A stretch of 64,000 nt of DNA from Myxococcota bacterium (GTDB lineage: Bacteria; Myxococcota; Kuafuiibacteriia; Kuafuiibacteriales; Kuafuiibacteriaceae). The stretch lies in contig CBDCWQ010000023.1 in assembly GCA_965223435.1 (NCBI GenBank), positions 930,607 to 994,606 of the forward strand, read 5' to 3'. A program made the translations under genes and the position numbers. Shown here piece after piece: positions 10,584 through 40,024 of this stretch. Each line of letters opens with the position of its first letter. Position 1 is the stretch's first letter. The notes under the pieces were generated by a model that saw only the letters and a program-made list of their open reading frames with translations, did not search any database and was not told the DNA's origin.

Positions 10584-11014
10584 CGCGCTCCCCCTCTTCG
10601 CCTTCGTCGGCGAGACTGAACCCGGTCGCCTTGAGCAAAAGTTGAGCCAGGAGCTCGACCGCTGTTGTGCGCCACTTGGGATCTAGAGTCGAGAGATGGA
10701 TCGGGCTCTGAAACAGTCGAAGCTGTGCTACCAGTTTCGGCTTGCGGGCTTGATTCGGCATTGGCGTCCTCCTTGAGACGACTCTTGCCTACTGTCGAAG
10801 ACTGATCGAGCTCTACTTCTGCGAGGATTCTCTTTAGTTCCTCCATCGCGCAAACGGACACCCGGGGCGGCCCGAGCTTCATATGACTACATGCCCCCGA
10901 ATCGAACATCCAAGCGGGTATAGCTGCGCCAGAATCGTTCGATAGGAAACAGATGTACACTCGTTCTGCTCCGCGCGCCTCTTCATAAGCGACATCAACT
11001 TTCTTGCCAAACAA
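10580..11014 (-). CDS. Hypothetical protein translationally coupled (ATGA overlap) to the serine recombinase gene. Its N-terminus may have been removed by the IS66 fragment.
   Basis: ATGA overlap at 10580-10583. Low-complexity C-terminal half. No recognisable domain. Confidence 0.3.
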   Translation of the reverse strand: MFGKKVDVAYEEARGAERVYICFLSNDSGAAIPAWMFDSGACSHMKLGPPRVSVCAMEELKRILAEVELDQSSTVGKSRLKEDANAESSPQAETGSTASTVSEPDPSLDSRSQVAHNSGRAPGSTFAQGDRVQSRRRRRRGGAR

Positions 11015-11075
11015 CGGATGCCATGGATACGCAATACGAGCGCTAAATTCGGCATGGGCAGAATGAGCTTGGGCT

Positions 11076-11398
11076 TGCTTCCGGAAGAAAGTCCTGGCTC
11101 TTTGCTGGCTCCAGGGGAGGCGCCGAGCGATTCGCCGACGTCCTTTCGGTTGTCTCCACCGCCGACGCAGCAGGCGTCGATTGTGGAAAGTACCTTCCTA
11201 GCATCATCGCCAACATCGACACTTGGCCGAACCGGGAGCTCGATCAGCTCTTGCCAGCCAACTGGCAAACCGCGCTCGAAGATTTCCTTCGCGAGAATAA
11301 CATTCAGCACTCCACACCTGCTGTACATTGAGCGCAGACCTCAACGTTACACCATGAAGCGGGCCGGGCTAGACGCCCCAAAAAGAACAGTTACGTTA
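11076..11398 (+). mobile_element. Solo 3' fragment (~320 bp) of an IS66-family element, covering the last ~85 codons of tnpC plus the right terminal IR.
   Basis: Near-identical to 55430-55752 of the complete IS66 in this window. The IR 'cgccccaaaaagaacagttacgtta' is present. The antisense ORF 10879-11328 shares its N-terminus with antisense ORF 54573-55682. Confidence 0.8.
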
Positions 11399-11414
11399 AA
11401 AGGGTGTGGGCTTA

Positions 11415-11449
11415 GGGAGCTGTGGCTGTTGGTAGCAGCCACAGCTCCC
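11415..11449. repeat. Perfect 14-bp inverted repeat with a 7-nt loop (GGGAGCTGTGGCTG-ttggtag-CAGCCACAGCTCCC), immediately outside the IS66 IR.
   Basis: Read directly from the sequence. Followed by 'gccctttgtt'. Could be a terminator or a protein-binding palindrome. Confidence 0.6.
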
Positions 11450-11460
11450 GCCCTTTGTTA

Positions 11461-11562
11461 ATTGCAGTAAGTATACCCAAAAGTACCAATATTGTAGATA
11501 CTTATATCAATGAAAACATGTGGTTGTACCTATGATATATGTACTTATGGTAAGATCTGGCT
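11461..11562. promoter_or_regulatory. ~100-bp AT-rich island with repeated GTAC...TACTTAT half-sites, directly upstream of the Cro-like gene. Putative operator/promoter.
   Basis: 'gtaccaatattgtagatacttatatcaatg' and 'gtacctatgatatatgtacttatggtaag'. The composition is sharply different from the surrounding DNA. Confidence 0.4.
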
Positions 11563-11817
11563 ATGGTCCGGAAGATCTCGGGAACCTATAACAGTCGTGC
11601 TCGTCAGCATCTGATCCGGCACATCGAACGATATTGGCCGTCCCAAGCAGAATTTGCCCGCACCGCCGGTGTGAAGATTCAGCATCTCAATCAGATCGCG
11701 AAGGGAGCCCTGCGGCCCGGCCTTAAGTACGCGGTGGAGATTGAGCGCGTGTCAGCCGACAAAGGCGATCCGATTCTTCCCCGCGAGTGGATGGATGAGA
11801 GCGGAGGTACTTCTTGA
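11563..11817 (+). CDS. Cro/YdaS-like HTH transcriptional regulator (84 aa).
   Basis: 'EFARTAGVKIQHLNQIAKG' is an HTH of the YdaS/Cro class. Isolated in a mobile-element debris field. Confidence 0.55.
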   Translation: MVRKISGTYNSRARQHLIRHIERYWPSQAEFARTAGVKIQHLNQIAKGALRPGLKYAVEIERVSADKGDPILPREWMDESGGTS

Positions 11818-11835
11818 GGTTCGAGATCAGCACCC

Positions 11836-13623
11836 TTAGGCAGTGGTGTGGACCAGGCTAATAAATTTTTCCCCCGGGGCTAAAGGGGGACCGTCTGGTG
11901 AGAGGACTCGTACAGCGCCATCAGATGGTGACCACGCCACTAGCGGAATGGCTCCGTTGTCGTAAGTTTCCTGGAAGGCCTCGTAAGTAAACTGCTCAGT
12001 AATTGTTGTCACCTTGAACTCACCATTCTTCAGCAAGGCGTCTGTAAGTTCTTCATGCGTATGGCCTGAGGCAAAGTACCGGGCACGAAGATGGATTGGA
12101 TACCGGTGCGTGTCATCTTCCATCGATGGGGTTAGCTGATAGACTTCATGGCCGAAGACGTCCTGAAAATGGAGCCCGCAAAGTGCATTGGCTTCATCGT
12201 TGGGAAGAAGGGCGATCATGCGGCCGAGGCCGTCATAGTCGAGGCGACTCATGGCATGTTCAGAGAGTGCATGGGCATGTTGTGCATCGAGTCCGGCCAT
12301 CCGCGCTTTGGTGACTTGTCCACGGTCAGAATCAACCAAAACAACAGGTACGCCTTCTTGTTTGAGGCACTGCGCAAAGGCTCGGGCTAGGCGGTCTGCC
12401 CCCACGATGAGAAAACCCGCTGGGTTTTGGTCTCCGAGGCGAAGGATTCGAGCCAAGGGCGCCGCGCTTAGTCCATATACGGCGACCGTCGACACAATGA
12501 CGAGGAAGGTCACCGGCATGATCTGGCCGGCGCCCTGAAAGCCTTCCTCCGTGAGACGAATACCAAAGACGGAAGAAACCGCCGCAGCGACAATGCCTCG
12601 GGGGGCAAGCCAAGCAAGAAAAACACGTTCCTTCCAAGAAAGTGAGGTGCCGATAGTGGACAAATACGTCGCGAGAGGGCGAACAACCAAAATGAGCGCC
12701 AGAATAAAGGCGACTACGCCCAGGGGGATTTGAGAAAAAGAGGTCAGCTCAATTCTCGCCGCCAAGAGGACAAAAAGGACAGATATGATCGCAACCGTGA
12801 TGTGTTCGGCAAACTCAACGATGGGCCGTACGTCAACGGAGCGCTGGGATGCGAGCGCAATACCCATGATCGTGACGGAAAAAAGACCCGATTCCGACTG
12901 AATGTGGTTCGATGCAGTGAAGACCACAAGGGCCAGAGTGATGGTGCTGCTATTGGTTAAAAAAGCGGGGAGCCACCGTTTCTTCAGGAGCATCTGAATG
13001 AGAAACGCACCTCCGATCCCGAGGAGCAAAGCAACCGCTGCGGTTTTGATGATACCAGTGACAACAACCCAAAACGCACCCTCAACACTGGGAACACGAA
13101 CCGCTTGAAAGACCAAGATGGCTAAAACTGCGCCCACCGGATCGTTGAGGATCCCTTCGAGTTTAATGAGCGATCCAAGTGTTGCCTTTGGCTTAACGTG
13201 ACGAAGAAGAGGTCCGATGACGGTGGGGCCCGTCACCACCAAGATTGCACCGAGTAGGAGTGCCATCGGCCAAGAGAAATCCAAGAAGTGGTGCGCGGCA
13301 GCAGCGCTCAGTGCCCACGTCACCAGGAGTCCGATGGTCACCAGCCTACGGACGGGCTGTGCCACCAGACGAATCTCCGAAAGGGGTGCGCCAAGGCCCC
13401 CCTCAAATAGAACGATCGCGGCCGCTATGGATACGATGGGCAAGGTTGCAGGACCGAGAAGTGCCCCTGGATCCACCAGGTTTGTGACAGGGCCGGCGAC
13501 AAAACCGACCGAGAGCAGCATCAATATAGAGGGAAATCTTAGGCGCCAAGCGATCCACTGCGAAATCGCTCCGAGCGCCAAGACAGTCACTAAGCCAACG
13601 ATAAGATGCTCGTTCACAGGATT
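11836..13623 (-). CDS. CPA1-family Na+/H+ antiporter (NhaP-type) with a C-terminal cytoplasmic regulatory domain. Start probably the GTG at 13623; the ORF tool extends to 13710.
   Basis: ~12 TM helices followed by a ~200-aa soluble domain. The N-terminal extension 'MLGVPAPHSKRRCFFRQTPCRL' looks non-coding. Confidence 0.8.
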   Translation of the reverse strand, partial: NPVNEHLIVGLVTVLALGAISQWIAWRLRFPSILMLLSVGFVAGPVTNLVDPGALLGPATLPIVSIAAAIVLFEGGLGAPLSEIRLVAQPVRRLVTIGLLVTWALSAAAAHHFLDFSWPMALLLGAILVVTGPTVIGPLLRHVKPKATLGSLIKLEGILNDPVGAVLAILVFQAVRVPSVEGAFWVVVTGIIKTAAVALLLGIGGAFLIQMLLKKRWLPAFLTNSSTITLALVVFTASNHIQSESGLFSVTIMGIALASQRSVDVRPIVEFAEHITVAIISVLFVLLAARIELTSFSQIPLGVVAFILALILVVRPLATYLSTIGTSLSWKERVFLAWLAPRGIVAAAVSSVFGIRLTEEGFQGAGQIMPVTFLVIVSTVAVYGLSAAPLARILRLGDQNPAGFLIVGADRLARAFAQCLKQEGVPVVLVDSDRGQVTKARMAGLDAQHAHALSEHAMSRLDYDGLGRMIALLPNDEANALCGLHFQDVFGHEVYQLTPSMEDDTHRYPIHLRARYFASGHTHEELTDALLKNGEFKVTTITEQFTYEAFQETYDNGAIPLVAWSPSDGAVRVLSPDGPPLAPGEKFISLVHTTA

Positions 13624-31543: not shown

Positions 31544-32905
31544 ATGGACAGGCCGAAGGGAAAGGTTCTTGTCATCGACGATGACATCGATCTCGCGGAC
31601 ACGCTAAAAATGGGCCTCAAGGGTCGAGGCTATCAAGTTCATACGTTGAACTCCGGCAATGAAGTGGTCACCAAACTTGAATCCGACGATTTTGATGTGG
31701 TCCTCACCGACCTCCAGATGGAAGGTCTCGATGGACTGGGTGTGGCCCGCTATGTGGTGGAGAACCGGGATATCCCGGTGATGATCATGACCGGCCAAGG
31801 AGACATGGACAAGGCCATCGAAGCGATCCGAGCCGGGGTTTACGACTTTCTCCCCAAGCCCGTTGCCCTCGATGTTGTAACCATCGCGCTCGATCGAGCG
31901 ATTCAGCACAAGCGGCTCGGAACTGAGCTTCGACGTTTGAGTGAACAACTCTCGAGTACCCAGACGGCGCTCGACATGATCGGTGAGAGTGGTCCCATCG
32001 AGCAGCTTCGAGATTTGGTGAAGAGAGTTGCTGGTGCTGAGGTTTCCGTGCTGGTGACGGGGGAGAGCGGAACGGGTAAGGAATTGGTCGCACGGGCCCT
32101 CCACAAGGAATCAGGAAAAAAAGGACGCTTCGTCGCTGTGAATTGTGCGGCGCTTCCCGAGACACTTCTAGAAAGTGAACTCTTTGGACACAAGAAGGGG
32201 GCCTTCACGGATGCCCGTACCGAGAAGAAGGGGCTTTTTCTTGAAGCCAATGACGGGACCCTGTTCTTGGATGAGATCGGCGACATGCCCATCGGCATGC
32301 AGGTCAAGCTGCTCCGAGCCCTTCAAGAATCCAAGATACGTCCGGTGGGAGGCACCGAGGAAGTCCACTTCTCGAGCCAGGTCATAGCGGCCACGCATCG
32401 TGATCTAGAGGAAGCGATCGAGGTCGGGGATTTTCGCGAGGACCTCTACTACAGGATCAATGTGGTTCGAATCCCCGTGCCTCCTCTTCGAACGAGGGGC
32501 AACGATATACTCATTTTAGCTCAGCATTTTATCGAAAGAGCCAGGGAAAAGTCCAATCGCCTCGTCAAGGAAATCTCAGAGCCAGCGGCCCACCGGCTTC
32601 TCGCATACGATTGGCCCGGTAATGTGCGCGAGCTGGAAAACTGTATGGAGCGTGCGGTGGCGTTGGCTCGCTTTGACAGGATCACAGCGGAAGATCTTCC
32701 TGAAAAGATCCAGAACTATGATGTGAGTCGGGCGCCGAATGCGATTCTCGCGCCAGAGCTCCTCTCTATGGAGGCACTCGAACGGCGCCACATCCAGAGC
32801 GTTCTCAAAGCTACAGATGGAAACAAGACCCGGGCCGCAGAAATACTGGGCTTCGACCGACGGACCCTCTACCGAAAGATGGAGCGCTTTGGCATGGAGC
32901 TCTAA
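31544..32905 (+). CDS. Sigma-54-dependent response regulator (NtrC family): REC, AAA+ sigma-54 activator and Fis-type HTH domains.
   Basis: 'GESGTGKE' Walker A. The GAFTGA-region motif. C-terminal 'RTLYRKMERFG'. Confidence 0.9.
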   Translation: MDRPKGKVLVIDDDIDLADTLKMGLKGRGYQVHTLNSGNEVVTKLESDDFDVVLTDLQMEGLDGLGVARYVVENRDIPVMIMTGQGDMDKAIEAIRAGVYDFLPKPVALDVVTIALDRAIQHKRLGTELRRLSEQLSSTQTALDMIGESGPIEQLRDLVKRVAGAEVSVLVTGESGTGKELVARALHKESGKKGRFVAVNCAALPETLLESELFGHKKGAFTDARTEKKGLFLEANDGTLFLDEIGDMPIGMQVKLLRALQESKIRPVGGTEEVHFSSQVIAATHRDLEEAIEVGDFREDLYYRINVVRIPVPPLRTRGNDILILAQHFIERAREKSNRLVKEISEPAAHRLLAYDWPGNVRELENCMERAVALARFDRITAEDLPEKIQNYDVSRAPNAILAPELLSMEALERRHIQSVLKATDGNKTRAAEILGFDRRTLYRKMERFGMEL

Positions 32906-33019: not shown

Positions 33020-34222
33020 TCAGTTCGTCCTGGAGTTCGTAGATTGAGCGGCCGACTGAGGCAAGCGCACGGTGAATGTTGAACCCTTTCCAACCTCGCT
33101 CTTGACGCTTAGGGCGCCGCCCATTCGTGCCACGAGCTCTCGAGAAATTGAAAGTCCCAGGCCAGCGCCCCGCTTGGTACGTCGGGGTTCCCGAAAGTAG
33201 GCGTCAAAAATATGCGTGAGATTTTCTTTGGAAATACCCGGTCCATTGTCCGCCACCGAGATATGAACCCACTTTCCCTCCTCATCGGTCGCACAGATTG
33301 TGACTGTCCCTGAGGCGGGTGTGTATTTCGCGGCGTTTCCGACGAGATTGACCAAAACTTGCCTCATGCGCGCCGCGTCTGCGAACACCTCCAACGAATC
33401 CGGGATTTCAGCGAGAATGGTGTGGCCTTTGGCCATGACTTCTCCCTTCACCAAAGTGAGCGAATCGTCGACCAATTTTCCGACTGATATGACTTGCAGG
33501 GACAGCTGCGTCCGGCCCGATGAAAGCGCTGCCATATCAAGGACATTGTTCATAAGCGTGCCGAGATGACGGGCGCTCAGTCTAATTTTTCTAAGCGCTG
33601 AACGCTGTCCTTCGGATAGAGAGCCAAACTCGCCGCCCTCGAGCATATCAAGGCACCACTGAATGGTTTGAAGTGGGGTCCTTGCGTCGTGCGAAACCGT
33701 GGCAAGCGCCTTCTCTTTGCGCTTGGCGAGCAAGTCCTTCGTCTCGGCCAGTTCTTCGGCTTCCTCCCACGCTTCTTCAAGCTGGACGCTGTCCAAAGCG
33801 AGCGCCACTTGATCTGAGAGCGCCGATAGCAGCCACTCCTCAGCCGAGGTGATATCTTCCTTCAGCTCGACCAGCAAAAGGATCCCGAGCTCCTCCCCTC
33901 GCGCGACGAGCGGGACTGCAAAACGATCTTGCCCCTTGTTGACCTGCACCAAGAGATCGGTGGTTGTCGCGCAGGAGTGTCTTTCGGCTTCTTTGAGAAA
34001 CCTGTCTGCATTGCCTGAGTGATCCGCTAGACCGAGCTCGCCTTCTTCACTGACGAGAACGACGGCCACGTCCACGCCGGGAAAAATCCCACGGGCGGCC
34101 TGGATGGCGACACGAAAAACGTCCGATCGTTTTGTTGCGTAGCTCAACGCCCGACCGGCTTCGGTCATGGCTCGAAGCACGCCCGGACGCAGCTCAATCT
34201 TCGGGCGGCTGCGATCATTCAT
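33020..34222 (-). CDS. Cytoplasmic GAF-domain sensor histidine kinase. Convergent partner of the NtrC-family regulator.
   Basis: GAF region, then H-box 'VSHDARTPL', then HATPase_c 'GAGLGLSISREL'. Confidence 0.85.
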   Translation of the reverse strand: MNDRSRPKIELRPGVLRAMTEAGRALSYATKRSDVFRVAIQAARGIFPGVDVAVVLVSEEGELGLADHSGNADRFLKEAERHSCATTTDLLVQVNKGQDRFAVPLVARGEELGILLLVELKEDITSAEEWLLSALSDQVALALDSVQLEEAWEEAEELAETKDLLAKRKEKALATVSHDARTPLQTIQWCLDMLEGGEFGSLSEGQRSALRKIRLSARHLGTLMNNVLDMAALSSGRTQLSLQVISVGKLVDDSLTLVKGEVMAKGHTILAEIPDSLEVFADAARMRQVLVNLVGNAAKYTPASGTVTICATDEEGKWVHISVADNGPGISKENLTHIFDAYFREPRRTKRGAGLGLSISRELVARMGGALSVKSEVGKGSTFTVRLPQSAAQSTNSRTN

Positions 34223-34345
34223 CTGGGGCCCCCGTCGAGGCGATGTGCCCCAGTACGCAAGATGGCCCCAGGGTTAACACGTATTTGTTTGTACCTGGTC
34301 GAGCCCATCTCCGTTCCTGGCCTTGATTCATCGAGCGAAGCTCCT

Positions 34346-34361
34346 TGGCACGGTTGCTGCA
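34346..34361 (+). promoter_or_regulatory. Sigma-54 promoter candidate TGGCAC-ggttg-CTGCA.
   Basis: One mismatch. The predicted TSS (~34372) coincides with the ATG at 34374 of the first gene of the downstream operon. Confidence 0.55.
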
Positions 34362-34373
34362 ATAACTCAATGC

Positions 34374-34706
34374 ATGATGATGAACCAAGCACGGAAAAAG
34401 AAACGGAAAAGCGATCGGGCCCGATCCGCCACACCACCACGCGTGGACTTGGCGCTTGTCACCGAACAGCTTCGCGAGTCCACCCAAGAACCCCCGCACG
34501 GTTACCTCAACGGCAAGACGCAGTTTCGGGAAGAAGTCGTGAAGTGCCTCGGGTGTTCGGAGATGTCCGCAGAGGCTCTGGTGGACACGCTAGAGTCAAG
34601 AGGCTTCTTAAAGTTCAACGCTTCTCCCAACCAAGTCCCCATGGGGGTTGGATCATGGAGCATCGCTCCGCCATCCCTCGGCGCGTCACCGCGAGGTATC
34701 CTATGA
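34374..34706 (+). CDS. Hypothetical small protein (~110 aa) with a basic N-terminus (KKKRK). Stop overlaps the next gene's start (ATGA).
   Basis: Coding-like middle 'LNGKTQFREEVVKCLGCSEMSAEALVDTLESRGFLKF'. ATGA coupling to the BON gene. Would be leaderless relative to the predicted TSS. Confidence 0.35.
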   Translation: MMMNQARKKKRKSDRARSATPPRVDLALVTEQLRESTQEPPHGYLNGKTQFREEVVKCLGCSEMSAEALVDTLESRGFLKFNASPNQVPMGVGSWSIAPPSLGASPRGIL

Positions 34707-35827
34707 GAACGATGGCCAGACGAGCAAGACGGATGATATTTCCCAAGTTTAGGGGGGCGCGGAAGGCTTTAGAAGCTTCGCGTCGCCCGAAAATGCTTCG
34801 CGCTTCGCACAATCTTGTTGAGTTCGCCACCGGGGGACCGAGCAAGGCGGTTGACTCGCTCCTCTCGAATCTTCCGATCGAGCGAAGACGCGCGGAGAGT
34901 GAGCGTACCGTCGCCGAGTGCGTGGATGACGGCACAATTGGCATTGTTCTGATCTGTGGACAACCCAATATGCATATCGAGTCTGCGCTTCGGAGGCTGA
35001 CGTATCGTTACATACCCCGGTGGGTGGTTGTCTCCGGCATTGTGGACAGGGATACCGCCCTTCGTCTGTACCGCGCCGGGGCGACCACGGTATTTTCTTG
35101 GCCCCGTGACGGTTTGGTATTCCAAAAGGTCATGGGCGAACACCTATGGCCCTCGGGCACGCCAGTCCCCGAGAATAGCAACCAGGCCATTGGTGACGCA
35201 GTGCGGGCACGGATTCAACTGTTGTCGTTCGATACTTCCTCTATCCAGATCGACTGTAGGGACGGAAACGTTTTCCTTTCAGGCACAATCGCGAAAAAGC
35301 AGTACTCCGACAGCGTAGCCTCTCAGGCATGTCAAGTCTCGGGCGTTCGCCGCGTACATACGTCAGCGCTCCTCGTGACAGAGAAAGTGCGCACAGATGA
35401 GTGCGTTCACAGAGACGTCCAGCACCATCTGGAACAATCCGCCTCGGTTGATGCAGCTACGCTGTCCATGTCGGTTAGGCGTGGATGTGTCACCCTCGCG
35501 GGCACGTTGCGCGGCGCGGATGAGCTGAAGCGTGTCCTTTCGCTCGTCAGTAAAATAGAGGGTGTTCGGTCCATCGCCAACATGACCACAGTGTCTCCAA
35601 GACAGAAAGTTGTGGATAAGAGAATTGCCACTCGGCTTCAAAAAGCGTTGTCGGACCGTTTCCCTCGTTCGGAACTGAATATCTCGGTGTTCGGAGGCTG
35701 TGCGGTCGTGGACGGCCTCGCTCCAAAGTCGAACATCAAGCGAAGAATCGAACGTTTCGTCGGTTCGATCGGATCGTTTCAGCATGTTGTGAACCGAGTC
35801 GAGGTCGCCAGCGGCGTAAGTGCGTAG
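34703..35827 (+). CDS. Protein with an N-terminal uncharacterised (REC-like?) domain and three BON domains (OsmY-like). The ORF tool's 147-aa N-terminal extension (from 34262) was rejected.
   Basis: Three repeats of the type 'VFLSGTIAKKQYSDSVASQACQVSGVRRV'. The upstream extension is Arg-rich and low complexity. Confidence 0.7.
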   Translation: MRTMARRARRMIFPKFRGARKALEASRRPKMLRASHNLVEFATGGPSKAVDSLLSNLPIERRRAESERTVAECVDDGTIGIVLICGQPNMHIESALRRLTYRYIPRWVVVSGIVDRDTALRLYRAGATTVFSWPRDGLVFQKVMGEHLWPSGTPVPENSNQAIGDAVRARIQLLSFDTSSIQIDCRDGNVFLSGTIAKKQYSDSVASQACQVSGVRRVHTSALLVTEKVRTDECVHRDVQHHLEQSASVDAATLSMSVRRGCVTLAGTLRGADELKRVLSLVSKIEGVRSIANMTTVSPRQKVVDKRIATRLQKALSDRFPRSELNISVFGGCAVVDGLAPKSNIKRRIERFVGSIGSFQHVVNRVEVASGVSA

Positions 35828-35836
35828 AAAACCTAT

Positions 35837-36961
35837 ATGGAAAAGACAAACTTCAAACTTATTAAGGCGCTAACCGAGCATTGTGCATTTCCTGCGGTGT
35901 CGGTGTACATGACCCCTGCTCCGCCCGGAGAAGACTCGAAGAGCAGCCAGATCGTGCTAAAGAATCTGCTTCGAGACGTCGACCAGGGATTGGGCGCATT
36001 GGATGCAAGGCGCAAGCAAGAAATACTTCGCCCTCTCACAGCGGTTGCTGAAGGAACAACGACTTTTCCTAGAGACAAACGCGGTCGGGCCTGGTTTTGT
36101 GGACCGGGTATATTCAAGTACTTCACTGGCCCGGCTCCTTTTGAATCCCTGGCTGTCGTGGGACATCGGTTTCACTTGAAACCGCTCGTGCCTTTCTTCG
36201 CCGAAGAGCCAACATTCTATCTGTTGGCGCTTAGTCAGGCTGACGTGCAGCTTTTCGAAGGAACACGTTTTTCGCTTACCCCTGTTCCCCTGGACGCAGA
36301 CGTTCCCACCACGATGGAGAGCCCCTACGATCCTGAACAAAGTCTGCAATACCACTCCAGTAAAGCAAGTGGGGCTCAACCAATTTATCATGGGCACGGC
36401 GGTGGAAAGGACGATACGAAACCGAAAATCTTACAGTTCTTTTCCCAGGTGTCCAAGGGAGTAAGAAAACAGATCTCATCTCGCGCTCCGCTGGTGCTCG
36501 CGGGGGTGGAGTTTTTGCTCCCCCTGTATCGCCAAGCCGCCCAAGATGTGTGCATCGTCGATCGCGAGATTGTCGGGCACCCAAGCTCCCGGAACCTGGA
36601 TGCACTTCACAAAGAGGCACTGAGGTGTGCAAAGCCCGTGCTTTTTGCTGAAAGAGAGTTGGCGCTCGGCCGATTCAAGGAACAACAATCTCAGAACCTA
36701 GGGACGACACGGATCGACGAAATCGTACCCGCCGCGGTGGAGGGGCGCGTGGATACGCTCTTCGTTTCACCAGGTGCGCGTTGTTGGGGGCGCTATGATC
36801 CGACACGCCGTAGTATTCGATTGGATAAGGCGCATACGGCCGAAAATGAAGACCTATACGATCTTGCGGCCGTTCAGACTCATTTGAATGGCGGCAAAGT
36901 TTGGGTCGTGCCCCAAGAGGAGTTGGGTGCGGATGTTGCCGCGCTTTATCGCTACGCATGA
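35837..36961 (+). CDS. eRF1/Pelota-like (baeRF-type) protein.
   Basis: C-terminal 'GGKVWVVPQEELGADVAALYRYA' resembles the eRF1 domain 3 / Dom34 ending (...GGIAAILRY). A Gly-rich 'YHGHGGGKDD' loop is present. The family call is from memory. Confidence 0.5.
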   Translation: MEKTNFKLIKALTEHCAFPAVSVYMTPAPPGEDSKSSQIVLKNLLRDVDQGLGALDARRKQEILRPLTAVAEGTTTFPRDKRGRAWFCGPGIFKYFTGPAPFESLAVVGHRFHLKPLVPFFAEEPTFYLLALSQADVQLFEGTRFSLTPVPLDADVPTTMESPYDPEQSLQYHSSKASGAQPIYHGHGGGKDDTKPKILQFFSQVSKGVRKQISSRAPLVLAGVEFLLPLYRQAAQDVCIVDREIVGHPSSRNLDALHKEALRCAKPVLFAERELALGRFKEQQSQNLGTTRIDEIVPAAVEGRVDTLFVSPGARCWGRYDPTRRSIRLDKAHTAENEDLYDLAAVQTHLNGGKVWVVPQEELGADVAALYRYA

Positions 36962-37359
36962 GTATCCTACCGCCAATACAGACACCCTACGAAACACCCG
37001 GCGACGGCGGTCCGGAGGTGGAACCTCCGCCGGATCGACCGATACAGCCTCCTCAGGATCCGCCGCTTCAGCCTCCTCAAGAGCCGCCCATTGAACCCCC
37101 AGGGAAATTGCCCGAACCCGCGCGCCCTCCGCAAGATCCTCCGGCACCGATCAAGCCGCCCACCGAGCCCCCAGAGCCGCTTGAGCCGCCGGGCGAAAGG
37201 CCGCCCATCGAAAGCGTGACTCCGTCTTCTAGAGACTCTGCCCACCGGCCTGGCCTCACCAGAGAATCGACGAGAGACCGGAGGGACTGTGCGGTGCGCC
37301 CGATTTCGACGCCAGGGTGGGCTTTTCTCCCCAGCATTCGGGTGCCGGACCCGAGCTGA
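36958..37359 (+). CDS. Proline-rich repeat protein (PPQDPP/PPQEPP/PPEPLEPP), ATGA-coupled to the baeRF-like gene.
   Basis: The start ATG at 36958 overlaps the TGA at 36959-36961. No signal peptide. Confidence 0.4.
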   Translation: MSILPPIQTPYETPGDGGPEVEPPPDRPIQPPQDPPLQPPQEPPIEPPGKLPEPARPPQDPPAPIKPPTEPPEPLEPPGERPPIESVTPSSRDSAHRPGLTRESTRDRRDCAVRPISTPGWAFLPSIRVPDPS

Positions 37360-37459
37360 CCCAGCGCCCGCCATGGATCACCCGATAGAGATTCCTTTCC
37401 CCGACGGGGCCTATCTATTTCTCGCCGGGTTTCCATGAAGCGAGGCAGGCTGGCGGAGT

Positions 37460-37815
37460 GTGCGGAAGATTCTAGTCCCCGTCGATATCTCGGGGGGCGC
37501 AAGGGCAGTCATTCGAACCTCTCTCTTTTCGATATCGCGAAGCAAAAGGCGAGTCGCGGCCTGTCGGAATACCTTGAAACCGAGACCTCTGATTGGGGCA
37601 GCACTCGTTCTGTATTCAGGGTCGAGTTTGGCTTTCCGTCCGGGGTGATTGCCATGACCGCGGCTGAGGGCAAATTCGATCTTGTCGTGATGGGCGCCCG
37701 CGGTTCCGGAGAATTTGATGCGCTTCGGCTGGGCCGTACCGCCGAGACGGTGTCCTGTCTTGACGGCCCGAGACCCCACCCACCGTTCGCGCGTTCGATT
37801 GAAGGGGCGCGATGA
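37460..37815 (+). pseudogene. Universal stress protein gene remnant, frameshifted.
   Basis: 'MRKILVPVDISGGARAV' in one frame and 'FDLVVMGARGSGEFDALRLGRTAETV' in another. Confidence 0.5.
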
Positions 37816-37849
37816 AACTGGTGGGAGTCGTTTGGTTTTGCTCCTGGGA

Positions 37850-38110
37850 TTGGCGCGTAGTGCCTGCTTACGTTCGATTTCGTGGTTATTGAACAAGATG
37901 TGCAGGCTGTATTCGCCGGATGGAACCGGTATCATATGGTCACCGCCGGGCAAGGGGCATCCTTTTGAGCTATCTACTACAAAAGGCTCCGCGAGCGCGT
38001 CACATTCCGGCGCGTCTTTTCCCTGTGAGGGCAGACGATCTAAATTGCGTACGCACCATGGCGTTGGTCATCCAATCGGGCGGCTGGCATCTTGTAATGC
38101 CAGCCGCCCG
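37850..38110 (-). pseudogene. Decayed tandem duplicate of the adjacent CarbopepD_reg-like gene.
   Basis: 'VVDSSKGCPLPGGDHMIPVPSGEYSLHILFNNHEIERKQ' parallels 'VLAYTDQQCVAAADTFPGGEYMIPVPPGVYNLRVLLDNHEIGNKR' of ORF 38124-38498. The remainder of the ORF is an Arg-rich antisense artefact. Confidence 0.4.
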
Positions 38111-38123
38111 ATGGATCCCATGG

Positions 38124-38498
38124 TCAACCATGATTCACGGGCTGGTTCGACCTACTGGCAATCGATGGGGCGGGAAGTTCCCAGGTCCTAAGATTGTGCT
38201 GCCAAGATCCGGCCTCAACTTGTACCCGCTTGTTTCCTATTTCGTGGTTGTCGAGCAAGACCCGCAGGTTGTACACGCCGGGTGGAACCGGGATCATATA
38301 CTCGCCGCCGGGGAACGTATCCGCCGCAGCGACGCACTGCTGATCTGTGTATGCGAGCACTGTTGCCGGTTGGCCCAACGGTTCCCCGTGCGGGCCAATA
38401 ACGCGTCCACCAATCTCACTCGTCGTTTGTCCAAAGACGGGCGAGGAGAAAGCTTGGACGATCAAAAAACTGAGTGTCAAGATAAAGCTTTTCATCAC
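38124..38498 (-). CDS. Small secreted protein with a carboxypeptidase-regulatory-like (CarbopepD_reg) beta-sandwich domain.
   Basis: Signal peptide 'MMKSFILTLSFLIVQAFSSPVFG'. 'GRVIGPHGEPLGQPATVLAY...YNLRV'. Confidence 0.6.
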   Translation of the reverse strand: MMKSFILTLSFLIVQAFSSPVFGQTTSEIGGRVIGPHGEPLGQPATVLAYTDQQCVAAADTFPGGEYMIPVPPGVYNLRVLLDNHEIGNKRVQVEAGSWQHNLRTWELPAPSIASRSNQPVNHG

Positions 38499-38523
38499 TA
38501 CCTCCTCCTTTGGTTATTCATTC

Positions 38524-39084
38524 TTAGTCGAGCGCCGGGATATCTACATAGTGCGCTTCCCACAGGAAGTCACTTTCTGCCTGGGACACGGACTGAACAT
38601 CATCGAGAATACTTCGCACTTGTGATTTGACGCTCTGTGGGACTTCGACTCCTGCTCTTAGCACGTGAAGCACCTGGTCGACTCGCCGGAGAATTTGGCG
38701 CCTTTGATAGCGAAGCCGCTCGAGTTGGTCGGAATATTCGGGAAACTCATCCAGAAACTCACGATAGAGCGGGCCAGACTCCACACTCCGAAAGTGGCGT
38801 CTGATGTCATCTTTCAGGGAACGAAGCGCCTCACGTAGCCTGGAGCATTCATGACGTCGAGCCTCCGGGTCGTCTCTTGATTCCAACGAGCGTAAGATCT
38901 CGTTCACTCGAGACCCGCAACGTTTCCAATCCTCGCCGACCCGCAGTCCTTCGAGACGAAGATCGAGACCTCCGCCCGGTGCGAGATCCTCTGCAGGCGC
39001 AAATGTACTCAGACCCTGAATCGAGTACTCGCCATCCCCCCACATCCAATTCTCGTCCCATGCATTTGATAGCTGCTTTCGCAT
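38524..39084 (-). CDS. Hypothetical protein, possibly hemerythrin-like. Downstream of two hsp20 genes.
   Basis: H/E-containing helical motifs ('RRHFRSVESGPLYREFL', 'WEAHYVDI'). Weak call. Confidence 0.45.
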   Translation of the reverse strand: MRKQLSNAWDENWMWGDGEYSIQGLSTFAPAEDLAPGGGLDLRLEGLRVGEDWKRCGSRVNEILRSLESRDDPEARRHECSRLREALRSLKDDIRRHFRSVESGPLYREFLDEFPEYSDQLERLRYQRRQILRRVDQVLHVLRAGVEVPQSVKSQVRSILDDVQSVSQAESDFLWEAHYVDIPALD

Positions 39085-39133
39085 GATGTTTCTCTCCATT
39101 TGGATCTTTTCAAGTAGATGTTCTACTCCTTGC

Positions 39134-39538
39134 CTACCAGCTTGCTTGAATCAGGATTTGTTTCGGTTTCGCCGATTCGAGCTTGGGCATGTGGACCTCG
39201 AGGAGTCCGTTTTTCAGTTCCGCGGTGATACCGTCGATATTCACATCTCTCCCCAGCTCAAATGTCCGCCGATAGTCAATGGCTCTCGGCTCATACGTAT
39301 CAGCGGGGCGCCGGGCTTCGATCCTAAGTTGGCCATCAGCATACTGCACGTCGACATCTTCTTTGCTCACGCCAGGGATGTTGGCCAGGACAAGATAATC
39401 ATCCGGGCTCTCGAACACATCGGTCGGGGCGCTGGCCCAGCACCGTGCAGACTCCAATCTTGCCAACGCACCCTCCGAGTGCTGACCGTTCGATTTCTCC
39501 AGTGCGTTTTCTTCTTTGGTTAAGATTTCAGTACCCAT
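39134..39538 (-). CDS. Hsp20/alpha-crystallin small heat-shock protein.
   Basis: 'YLVLANIPGVSKEDVDVQYADGQLRI...NGLLEVHMPK'. Confidence 0.85.
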   Translation of the reverse strand: MGTEILTKEENALEKSNGQHSEGALARLESARCWASAPTDVFESPDDYLVLANIPGVSKEDVDVQYADGQLRIEARRPADTYEPRAIDYRRTFELGRDVNIDGITAELKNGLLEVHMPKLESAKPKQILIQASW

Positions 39539-39568
39539 TCTGGTTCCTCCTTATTGCGGTACTCCCGT

Positions 39569-40024
39569 CTACGCGGCTTTCACATCAATTTTTCGCGGTT
39601 CGGCTTCTGGCCTCTTAGGAATTTGAAGCGTCAGCACGCCATTCTTTATCTCGGCGTCGATGTGTTCGGGATCGAGATCTTTGGCCACGGAGAACGTCTT
39701 TGAGAATTTCATAGGGGGCCTTTCTGATAGGCGTTTTTCGTAGCCCTCAGGAGCCTCCATGTGCTTCTCTCCGGTTACCGTCATCTTGTTTCCGGTCACT
39801 TCAATTTGGATGTCCTTTTCCGAAAGGCCGGGAACATCGGCTTTCAGTGCAACGCCAGAATCAGTTGGATAAGATGAAAACTTCGGCCCGGGTTCGGTGT
39901 GCAGCCCCCCCCAGTTGTGCAAGGGTGCATCGAACGGTAGGAGCTCCCGCTTGAGCCAAGGGTTTGGCAATGTCCAATCGACAGAGCCAAACAAAGGGTT
40001 GTTAAAAAATCGGTGCATCATCAT
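39569..40024 (-). CDS. Hsp20/alpha-crystallin small heat-shock protein.
   Basis: 'ALKADVPGLSEKDIQIEVTGNKMTV...NGVLTLQIPK'. Confidence 0.85.
   Translation of the reverse strand: MMMHRFFNNPLFGSVDWTLPNPWLKRELLPFDAPLHNWGGLHTEPGPKFSSYPTDSGVALKADVPGLSEKDIQIEVTGNKMTVTGEKHMEAPEGYEKRLSERPPMKFSKTFSVAKDLDPEHIDAEIKNGVLTLQIPKRPEAEPRKIDVKAA

Follow-up and report, generated by a model that had tools for sequence, protein, structure and literature searches.

Balon binds the A site of vacant as well as translating ribosomes and contacts both active centres; it lacks the NIKS and GGQ motifs and associates with EF-Tu-GDP (Helena-Bueno et al., PMC10901736). A two-strand insert in its C-domain has been linked to EF-Tu binding, and its genes, which were found in about 1,572 representative bacteria, are typically located in stress operons together with RaiA, Hsp20, OsmC, OsmY, HdeD, RtcB and others (PMC10901736). 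Burroughs and Aravind defined the baeRF-1 families and predicted that they have a role in translational shutdown (PMC6514570). Balon is a widespread factor that was discovered only recently, and little is known about the control of its expression and about its partners. Here, four consecutive open reading frames (ORF1 to ORF4) are analysed that are located on the plus strand of a 64,000-nucleotide (nt) stretch of a Myxococcota contig (CBDCWQ010000023.1, positions 930,607 to 994,606). This whole stretch is called the window, and all positions below are window positions unless another locus is named. The locus is, in our judgement, likely to be a Balon-type ribosome hibernation stress operon under probable sigma-54/NtrC-type control, with ORF3 as the Balon homologue.

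Family membership, fold, gene order and a promoter-like site are the observations on which this reading is built, and the features concerned are the following.

34346-34361, plus strand: sigma-54-type -24/-12 promoter candidate, TGGCACGGTTGCTGCA, with one mismatch to TGGCAC-N5-TTGCW
34374-34706, plus strand: ORF1, 110 amino acids (aa), with a basic, disordered tail and, after it, a winged-helix-like domain; member of an uncurated small-protein family
34703-35827, plus strand: ORF2, start at 34703 or 34733, three BON domains at about 35198-35371, 35411-35596 and 35609-35806 (Pfam)
35837-36961, plus strand: ORF3, Balon-family (baeRF_family3) hibernation factor homologue with three aeRF1-like domains (Pfam, NCBIfam, PDB, Foldseek)
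36389-36415, plus strand: HGHGGGKDD loop of ORF3, residues 185-193 (conservation in 23 relatives, motif table)
31544-32905, plus strand: NtrC-type sigma-54 activator with REC, AAA+ Sigma54_activat and HTH_8 domains (Pfam E 1.4e-23 for Response_reg, 1.1e-67 for Sigma54_activat and 7.7e-15 for HTH_8)
33020-34222, minus strand: soluble GAF-HisKA-HATPase sensor histidine kinase, divergent from the operon (Pfam HATPase_c 1e-30, HisKA 1.3e-11, GAF_2 4.3e-05)

The best Pfam family of ORF3 is baeRF_family3 (PF18845; 117.5 bits, cut-off 31.5), with weaker matches to the baeRF families 7, 6, 11 and 8, and its sole NCBIfam match is NF052287, "AOC03_06830 family ribosome hibernation factor", over residues 10-373. 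A sequence search of the PDB led to a single protein, chain B of the entries 8rd8, 8rdv and 8rdw, which is the Balon of Psychrobacter urativorans under a misleading deposited name; residues 5-361 of 8rd8_B align with residues 9-367 of ORF3 (E 3.1e-10). Because the P. urativorans Balon sequence, rebuilt from the PDB alignment, also scores best to baeRF_family3 (105.7 bits), ORF3 and the characterized Balon belong to one Pfam family. An AlphaFold (AF2) model of ORF3, built from 23 relatives, has a predicted local distance difference test score (pLDDT) of 83, and its top Foldseek matches are Balon (E 2.7e-22, template modelling (TM) score 0.66), Msmeg1130 (TM 0.66-0.68) and Rv2629 (TM 0.62), all three of which had their structures determined on ribosomes; the TM score is at most 0.49 for aRF1, eRF1 and Pelota. 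As in Balon, the family is baeRF_family3, the fold has three aeRF1-like domains, the alignment extends over the full length, neither GGQ nor NIKS is present in the sequence, and a two-strand insert is predicted in the C-domain (strands 317-321 and 326-329 with the invariant residues W317 and G318, seen in the model only). Judged by sequence and model, ORF3 is clearly an eRF1-like member of the Balon family, and its nearest relative in a search of 5.8 billion proteins is 42% identical. The original prediction, which had been made from the DNA sequence, took the 374-aa product for a bacterial eRF1/Pelota-type (baeRF) protein, and Pfam, the PDB alignment and Foldseek agree with it: the hidden Markov model (HMM) and structure comparisons yielded the predicted fold, nearest to ribosome-bound Balon-type proteins. 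The accompanying statement that the family is largely uncharacterized no longer applies, since P. urativorans Balon belongs to baeRF_family3 and its function was reported in 2024.

The gene context has the same character. Balon genes occur among stress genes that include Hsp20 and a BON protein, as does the ORF3 gene, and the stress genes around the operon, i.e., three Hsp20 genes and genes for a universal stress protein (USP), MscS and NhaA, fit the pattern that has been published for Balon genes (PMC10901736). The original prediction had placed a BON gene directly upstream of a baeRF gene, which is indeed the case, and had called the arrangement undescribed. It is not new in kind, because OsmY, OsmC, Hsp20 and RaiA are published neighbours of Balon (PMC10901736).

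All four open reading frames that had been proposed were found, namely at 34374-34706, 34703-35827, 35837-36961 and 36958-37359 on the plus strand. The stop codon TGA of ORF1 (34704-34706) overlaps with an in-frame ATG at 34703, a gap of 9 nt separates the end of ORF2 at 35827 from the start of ORF3 at 35837, and ORF3 and ORF4 are joined by an ATGA overlap at 36958-36961. The junctions therefore correspond to the proposed chain of ATGA overlaps and short gaps, with the reservation that the start of ORF2 is ambiguous. Because the public gene call for ORF2 starts at 34733 (364 aa, P0124) and not at the ATGA overlap at 34703, ORF1 and ORF2 may be coupled via this overlap, but need not be. Between the four ORFs, the plus strand shows no terminator-like site, and an Rfam scan of the window matched no RNA family. 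ORF1 to ORF3 would be transcribed as a single, tightly packed unit from the sigma-54 site.

In NtrC-family two-component control, a REC-AAA+-HTH activator and its partner kinase act together with a -24/-12 element in a divergent intergenic region, and the same set of elements is present here. The kinase has no hydrophobic segment. Two claims of the original prediction stood up, i.e., that a sigma-54 site precedes the operon, which has one mismatch to the consensus and belongs to a site type that is enriched in the window, and that its activator is adjacent, which is the Sigma54_activat protein at 31544-32905. The window contains 11 sites of this type versus 1.78 expected, a sixfold enrichment that was reached in 0 of 100 shuffles, and the background rate of the window corresponds to only about 0.002 chance sites on the plus strand of the 151-nt intergenic stretch. 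Most of the other sites are located 27-53 nt before small ORFs (USP, PRC-barrel protein, DUF4398 lipoprotein and others), and because most of them precede such small stress-gene ORFs, the site type is credible in this organism. Only weak inverted and direct repeats occur in 34050-34400, and the upstream region of the operon has no 9-mer in common with the remaining sigma-54 promoter regions of the window, so that no binding site for the activator can be named. Two 31-nt direct repeats at 34138-34218, which are 71% identical and 50 nt apart, are situated in the opening codons of the kinase gene, which places them about 130-210 nt upstream of the -24 element, and could be a candidate binding site for the activator.

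A comparison with the closest Balon relatives was based on 83 Balon loci, 80 from species-representative genomes and three from metagenome contigs. Upstream of the Balon homologues, six sigma-54-type sites with at most one mismatch are present (L008, L010, L014, L019, L024 and L045), versus 0.86 expected. Five of the six have the sequence CGGCACG-N4-TTGCT and are found in Thermoanaerobaculia genomes; as these five loci are related, they are not independent events. In the Chloroflexaceae locus L063 a site with two mismatches occurs, and a divergent NtrC-type gene abuts the Balon gene. Sigma-54-type sites about 75-150 nt upstream of Balon homologues in Thermoanaerobaculia and Chloroflexaceae metagenome-assembled genomes were noted at position 9852 of L008, 9868 of L010, 9851 of L014, 5997 of L019, 9910 of L024, 2702 of L058 and 9926 of L063.

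As for ORF1, the gene is real: of the six frames, only that of ORF1 yields a positive codon-usage score, and an exhaustive HMMER search of 1.8 billion representative proteins retrieved 182 relatives at E<1e-3, nearly all of the listed ones with a length of 80-130 aa. They have the core DLAxL...GYxxGKTxxR...CSxxxAExLVDTLExRGF...W in common. A word-indexed protein search with ORF1 gave no matches, and no model of Pfam, NCBIfam or PADLOC covers the family. The predicted topology consists of three helices and a two-strand beta wing, as in the winged-helix DNA-binding domains of the MarR, LexA, Fur and DEP type, in contrast to which ORF1 is very small, has a Lys/Arg-rich tail and does not match any of their sequence families. 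It may be speculated that ORF1 binds nucleic acid.

The three BON domains that had been read from the sequence of ORF2 were recovered by Pfam in three stretches with 94 bits in total. Repeated BON domains are also found in OsmY, DolP (YraP) and Kbp of E. coli, which are tied to osmotic or general stress. ORF2 differs from these proteins in lacking a signal peptide or lipobox and in having three BON domains together with an N-terminal region of about 150 aa. It stays far below the NCBIfam cut-offs for OsmY (35.2 bits versus 174), Kbp/LysM and DolP, and its PDB match, to YraP/DolP, is weak. No signal peptide was found, the Kyte-Doolittle maximum in the first 50 aa being 0.21 compared to 2.89 in an MscS control, and because a hydrophobic N-terminus is missing, ORF2 should be cytoplasmic, unlike OsmY. 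The first 150 or so residues have no match in Pfam (E<=10) or the PDB. Part of it had been described as REC-like. This lacks HMM support, as Response_reg does not match even at E<=10, and the candidate was dismissed, because a stretch of 33 residues that resembles beta4-alpha4-beta5 of the neighbouring NtrC receiver is too weakly similar (pairwise E 0.009). A word-indexed search with ORF2 retrieved only ORF2 itself, with no relative at E<1e-5. A protective role of the BON protein linked to ions, osmolytes or the membrane would be a guess.

The full quartet of ORFs is present in none of the 83 Balon loci, and it is specific to this lineage. An ORF1-family gene occurs in one of the 83 loci (L022), where it lies about 300 nt downstream of the Balon homologue among USP genes, and a BON gene in two, at a distance of 1.4 kb in L054 and of 8 kb in L061. 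The original prediction had made the eRF1-like fold and the conservation of the cluster in related genomes its touchstones; the former was found as predicted, the latter was not. Other neighbours were also noted. In four cyanobacterial loci (L031, L051, L057 and L067, at about 11000-12500) an MscS gene starts at the end of the Balon homologue, so that MscS is a second osmotic-stress gene that is repeatedly paired with Balon. Near the closest relative, P0002, an MscS gene is accompanied by a gene for a Na+/H+ exchanger in L001 and by one for an ABC-transporter permease in L002 and L003.

It should be noted that a number of observations weigh against a Balon-type hibernation operon under sigma-54 control, and that they open the way for other explanations. 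ORF3 differs from Balon in its HGHGxGxDD loop, in the apparently missing His-Pro (HP) at the aligned N-domain loop, in its probable sigma-54 control and in that no RaiA/HPF gene was found nearby. The two proteins are only about 21% identical, and the NF052287 score of 84.9 bits is far below the equivalog cut-off of 330, so that by this measure ORF3 counts as a relative within the family and not as an equivalog. The "EHP" of the Balon N-domain aligns with "PGE" of ORF3, and the clade of ORF3 has no HP at this position; the published HP motif may therefore be absent from ORF3, with the proviso that the text of the Balon paper gives the motif without residue numbers. In the PDB alignment, Balon has no counterpart of the conserved HGHGxGxDD loop. 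A search of the window for an HPF/RaiA gene was negative, a result of little weight because approximate E. coli queries were used. The loop is the feature on which a different function could be founded, namely that of a ribosome-rescue or release factor, Dom34-like or catalytic, with the HGHGxGxDD loop working at the peptidyl-transferase centre. The residues H185, G186, G188, G190 and D192 vary little or not at all among 23 relatives with only 33-42% identity to ORF3, the loop lies just before the following M-domain helix and presumably at the position of the GGQ loop of eRF1, it is missing from the P. urativorans protein, and rescue roles for the baeRF-1 families were weighed by Burroughs and Aravind (PMC6514570). 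However, the loop contains no glutamine, the Pfam family is common to ORF3 and Balon, the top structural matches are hibernation complexes, and the gene context is one of stress or dormancy, not of RNA repair, so that rescue or release is very unlikely. In the ORF3 model, residues 163-191 have a low pLDDT and the loop is disordered, which recalls the lasso loop of Balon that is ordered only with P-site tRNA (PMC10901736). The original prediction had also mentioned conflict as a setting for such proteins. On this reading, the quartet would be a conflict or anti-phage system with ribosomes or tRNA as its targets. The baeRF-1 families are laterally spread and have been tied to biological conflicts (PMC6514570), but PADLOC gives no support, as none of the four proteins is matched, the operon contains no nuclease, toxin or mobile-element gene, and the genes around it are of the classical abiotic-stress kind. 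After the PADLOC scan, the reading as a defence system was discarded, and its probability is very low.

Compared with textbook NtrC-family sigma-54 control, the activator has GAFTDA instead of the canonical GAFTGA in its loop at residue 219, the -12 element of TGGCACGGTTGCTGCA is CTGC and not TTGC, there is almost no 5' leader, and an upstream activator site was not identified. With only 12 nt between the end of the site and the first ATG of ORF1, the transcript would have little or no leader, which sets this site apart from the others in the window. In addition, neither an RpoN box nor rpoN is present in the window. The mismatch in the -12 element, the short distance to ORF1 and the GAFTDA loop would be understandable if the sigma-54 match were not a working promoter, another type of promoter drove the genes, and the two-component system regulated something else, an explanation that is also favoured by the lack of an upstream activator motif common to the sigma-54 promoter regions of the window. 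Nevertheless, it appears somewhat unlikely, because a site of this quality is hardly expected by chance in the intergenic stretch, no sigma-70-type site was found on the plus strand of 33900-38600, and similar sites are present upstream of Balon homologues elsewhere. Alternatively, the genes might merely lie close together and be functionally unrelated, with ORF1 and ORF2 taking no part in ribosome hibernation. This has a sizeable, albeit minor, probability: the quartet does not recur in the related Balon loci, and no Balon gene is present on the contigs of three other ORF1-family proteins (L084/L085, L086 and L087/L088), several of which are shorter than 2.5 kb. Against it stand the tight junctions between the ORFs, the ORF1-family gene beside the Balon homologue in L022, the BON gene near Balon in L054, and the report that OsmY is a common neighbour of Balon (PMC10901736). 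Taken together, a Balon-type hibernation operon under probable sigma-54/NtrC-type control remains the preferred reading.

Transcription from the sigma-54 site, ribosome binding and cooperation among the three proteins are steps that we infer, and a mechanism could be envisaged as follows. The soluble GAF histidine kinase and the NtrC-type activator would probably switch on the sigma-54 promoter at 34346-34361, from which ORF1, ORF2 and ORF3 would be transcribed together. By homology, ORF3 would enter the ribosomal A site and contact the decoding and peptidyl-transferase centres, and lacking the GGQ glutamine and NIKS, it would not lead to peptide release. It would probably act together with EF-Tu-GDP, and the ribosomes would be kept in an inactive, protected state until better conditions return. 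The BON and winged-helix proteins might be lineage-specific passengers or helpers.

The understanding of the Balon family as such is unchanged by this locus, which is one more case of an already known type of stress operon. However, it adds a divergent Balon member for which a sensor, an activator and a promoter of its own are plausible, as well as two co-located proteins, and together with the sites in other phyla it provides a testable lead on the trigger of hibernation. In the literature searched, no paper links Balon to sigma-54 control or uses the term "BON domain" in connection with it. A far-reaching interpretation would be that sigma-54/NtrC-type control is a recurrent, unreported switch of Balon genes (here, in Thermoanaerobaculia and in Chloroflexaceae), that the three-BON and winged-helix proteins are new hibernation partners, and that HGHGxGxDD is the mark of a Balon subclass with a different way of engaging the peptidyl-transferase centre; this combination is quite unlikely to be correct in full. 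The three leads that remain, i.e., sigma-54/NtrC control with hints in other phyla, the ORF1 family and the HGHGxGxDD loop, are modest.

The surroundings of the operon and the DNA downstream of it contain further features.

36958-37359, plus strand: ORF4, Pro-rich open frame with 42 Pro in 133 aa, a doubtful gene (no coding score or family match)
37460-37815, plus strand: universal stress protein gene interrupted by two or more frameshifts, of which the first lies at the G6 run 37492-37497 (Pfam Usp)
39134-40024, minus strand: two Hsp20 genes, 39134-39538 and 39569-40024 (Pfam HSP20 6.9e-15 and 2.6e-20)

ORF4, which had been proposed as the fourth gene of the operon, is probably not a gene, since coding score, gene calls and family searches are all negative. 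No frame of 36958-37359 has a positive coding score, and the public gene calls of the contig list the flanking ORF3 and USP fragment, but none of four ORF4 variants with different starts and neither of two antisense ORFs that were compared. ORF4 has no Pfam, NCBIfam or PADLOC match and no relative in the 83 Balon loci. It carries a 24-nt repeat in 2.3 copies, in which the synonymous variation of the Pro codons is the sole hint of a constraint at the protein level.

The USP gene that follows is matched by Pfam Usp with 34 bits in the middle part of 37460-37815 only, and its N-terminal MRKILVPVDISGG and its C-terminal CPVL motif are in another frame. It is either a pseudogene or the result of a local assembly error.

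On a larger scale, positions 14000-44300 of the window form a stress-gene island with many -24/-12 sites 27-53 nt before small ORFs, among them those for a USP (20820, minus strand), a PRC-barrel protein (24855, plus strand), a DUF4398 lipoprotein (30088, minus strand), a Gly-rich protein of 173 aa (26984, plus strand) and another lipoprotein (24005, plus strand). The NhaA gene, the MscS gene and the three Hsp20 genes are part of this island, too. On the minus strand of 37900-38500, two carboxypeptidase-regulatory-like repeats, GGEYMIPVPPGVYNL and GGDHMIPVPSGEYSL, are found in different frames, which gives the impression of a decayed multi-repeat gene. An ORF of 191 aa (38524-39099, minus strand), located between this region and the two Hsp20 genes, has a weak hemerythrin-like (HHE) match of 21.8 bits, which is below the cut-off.

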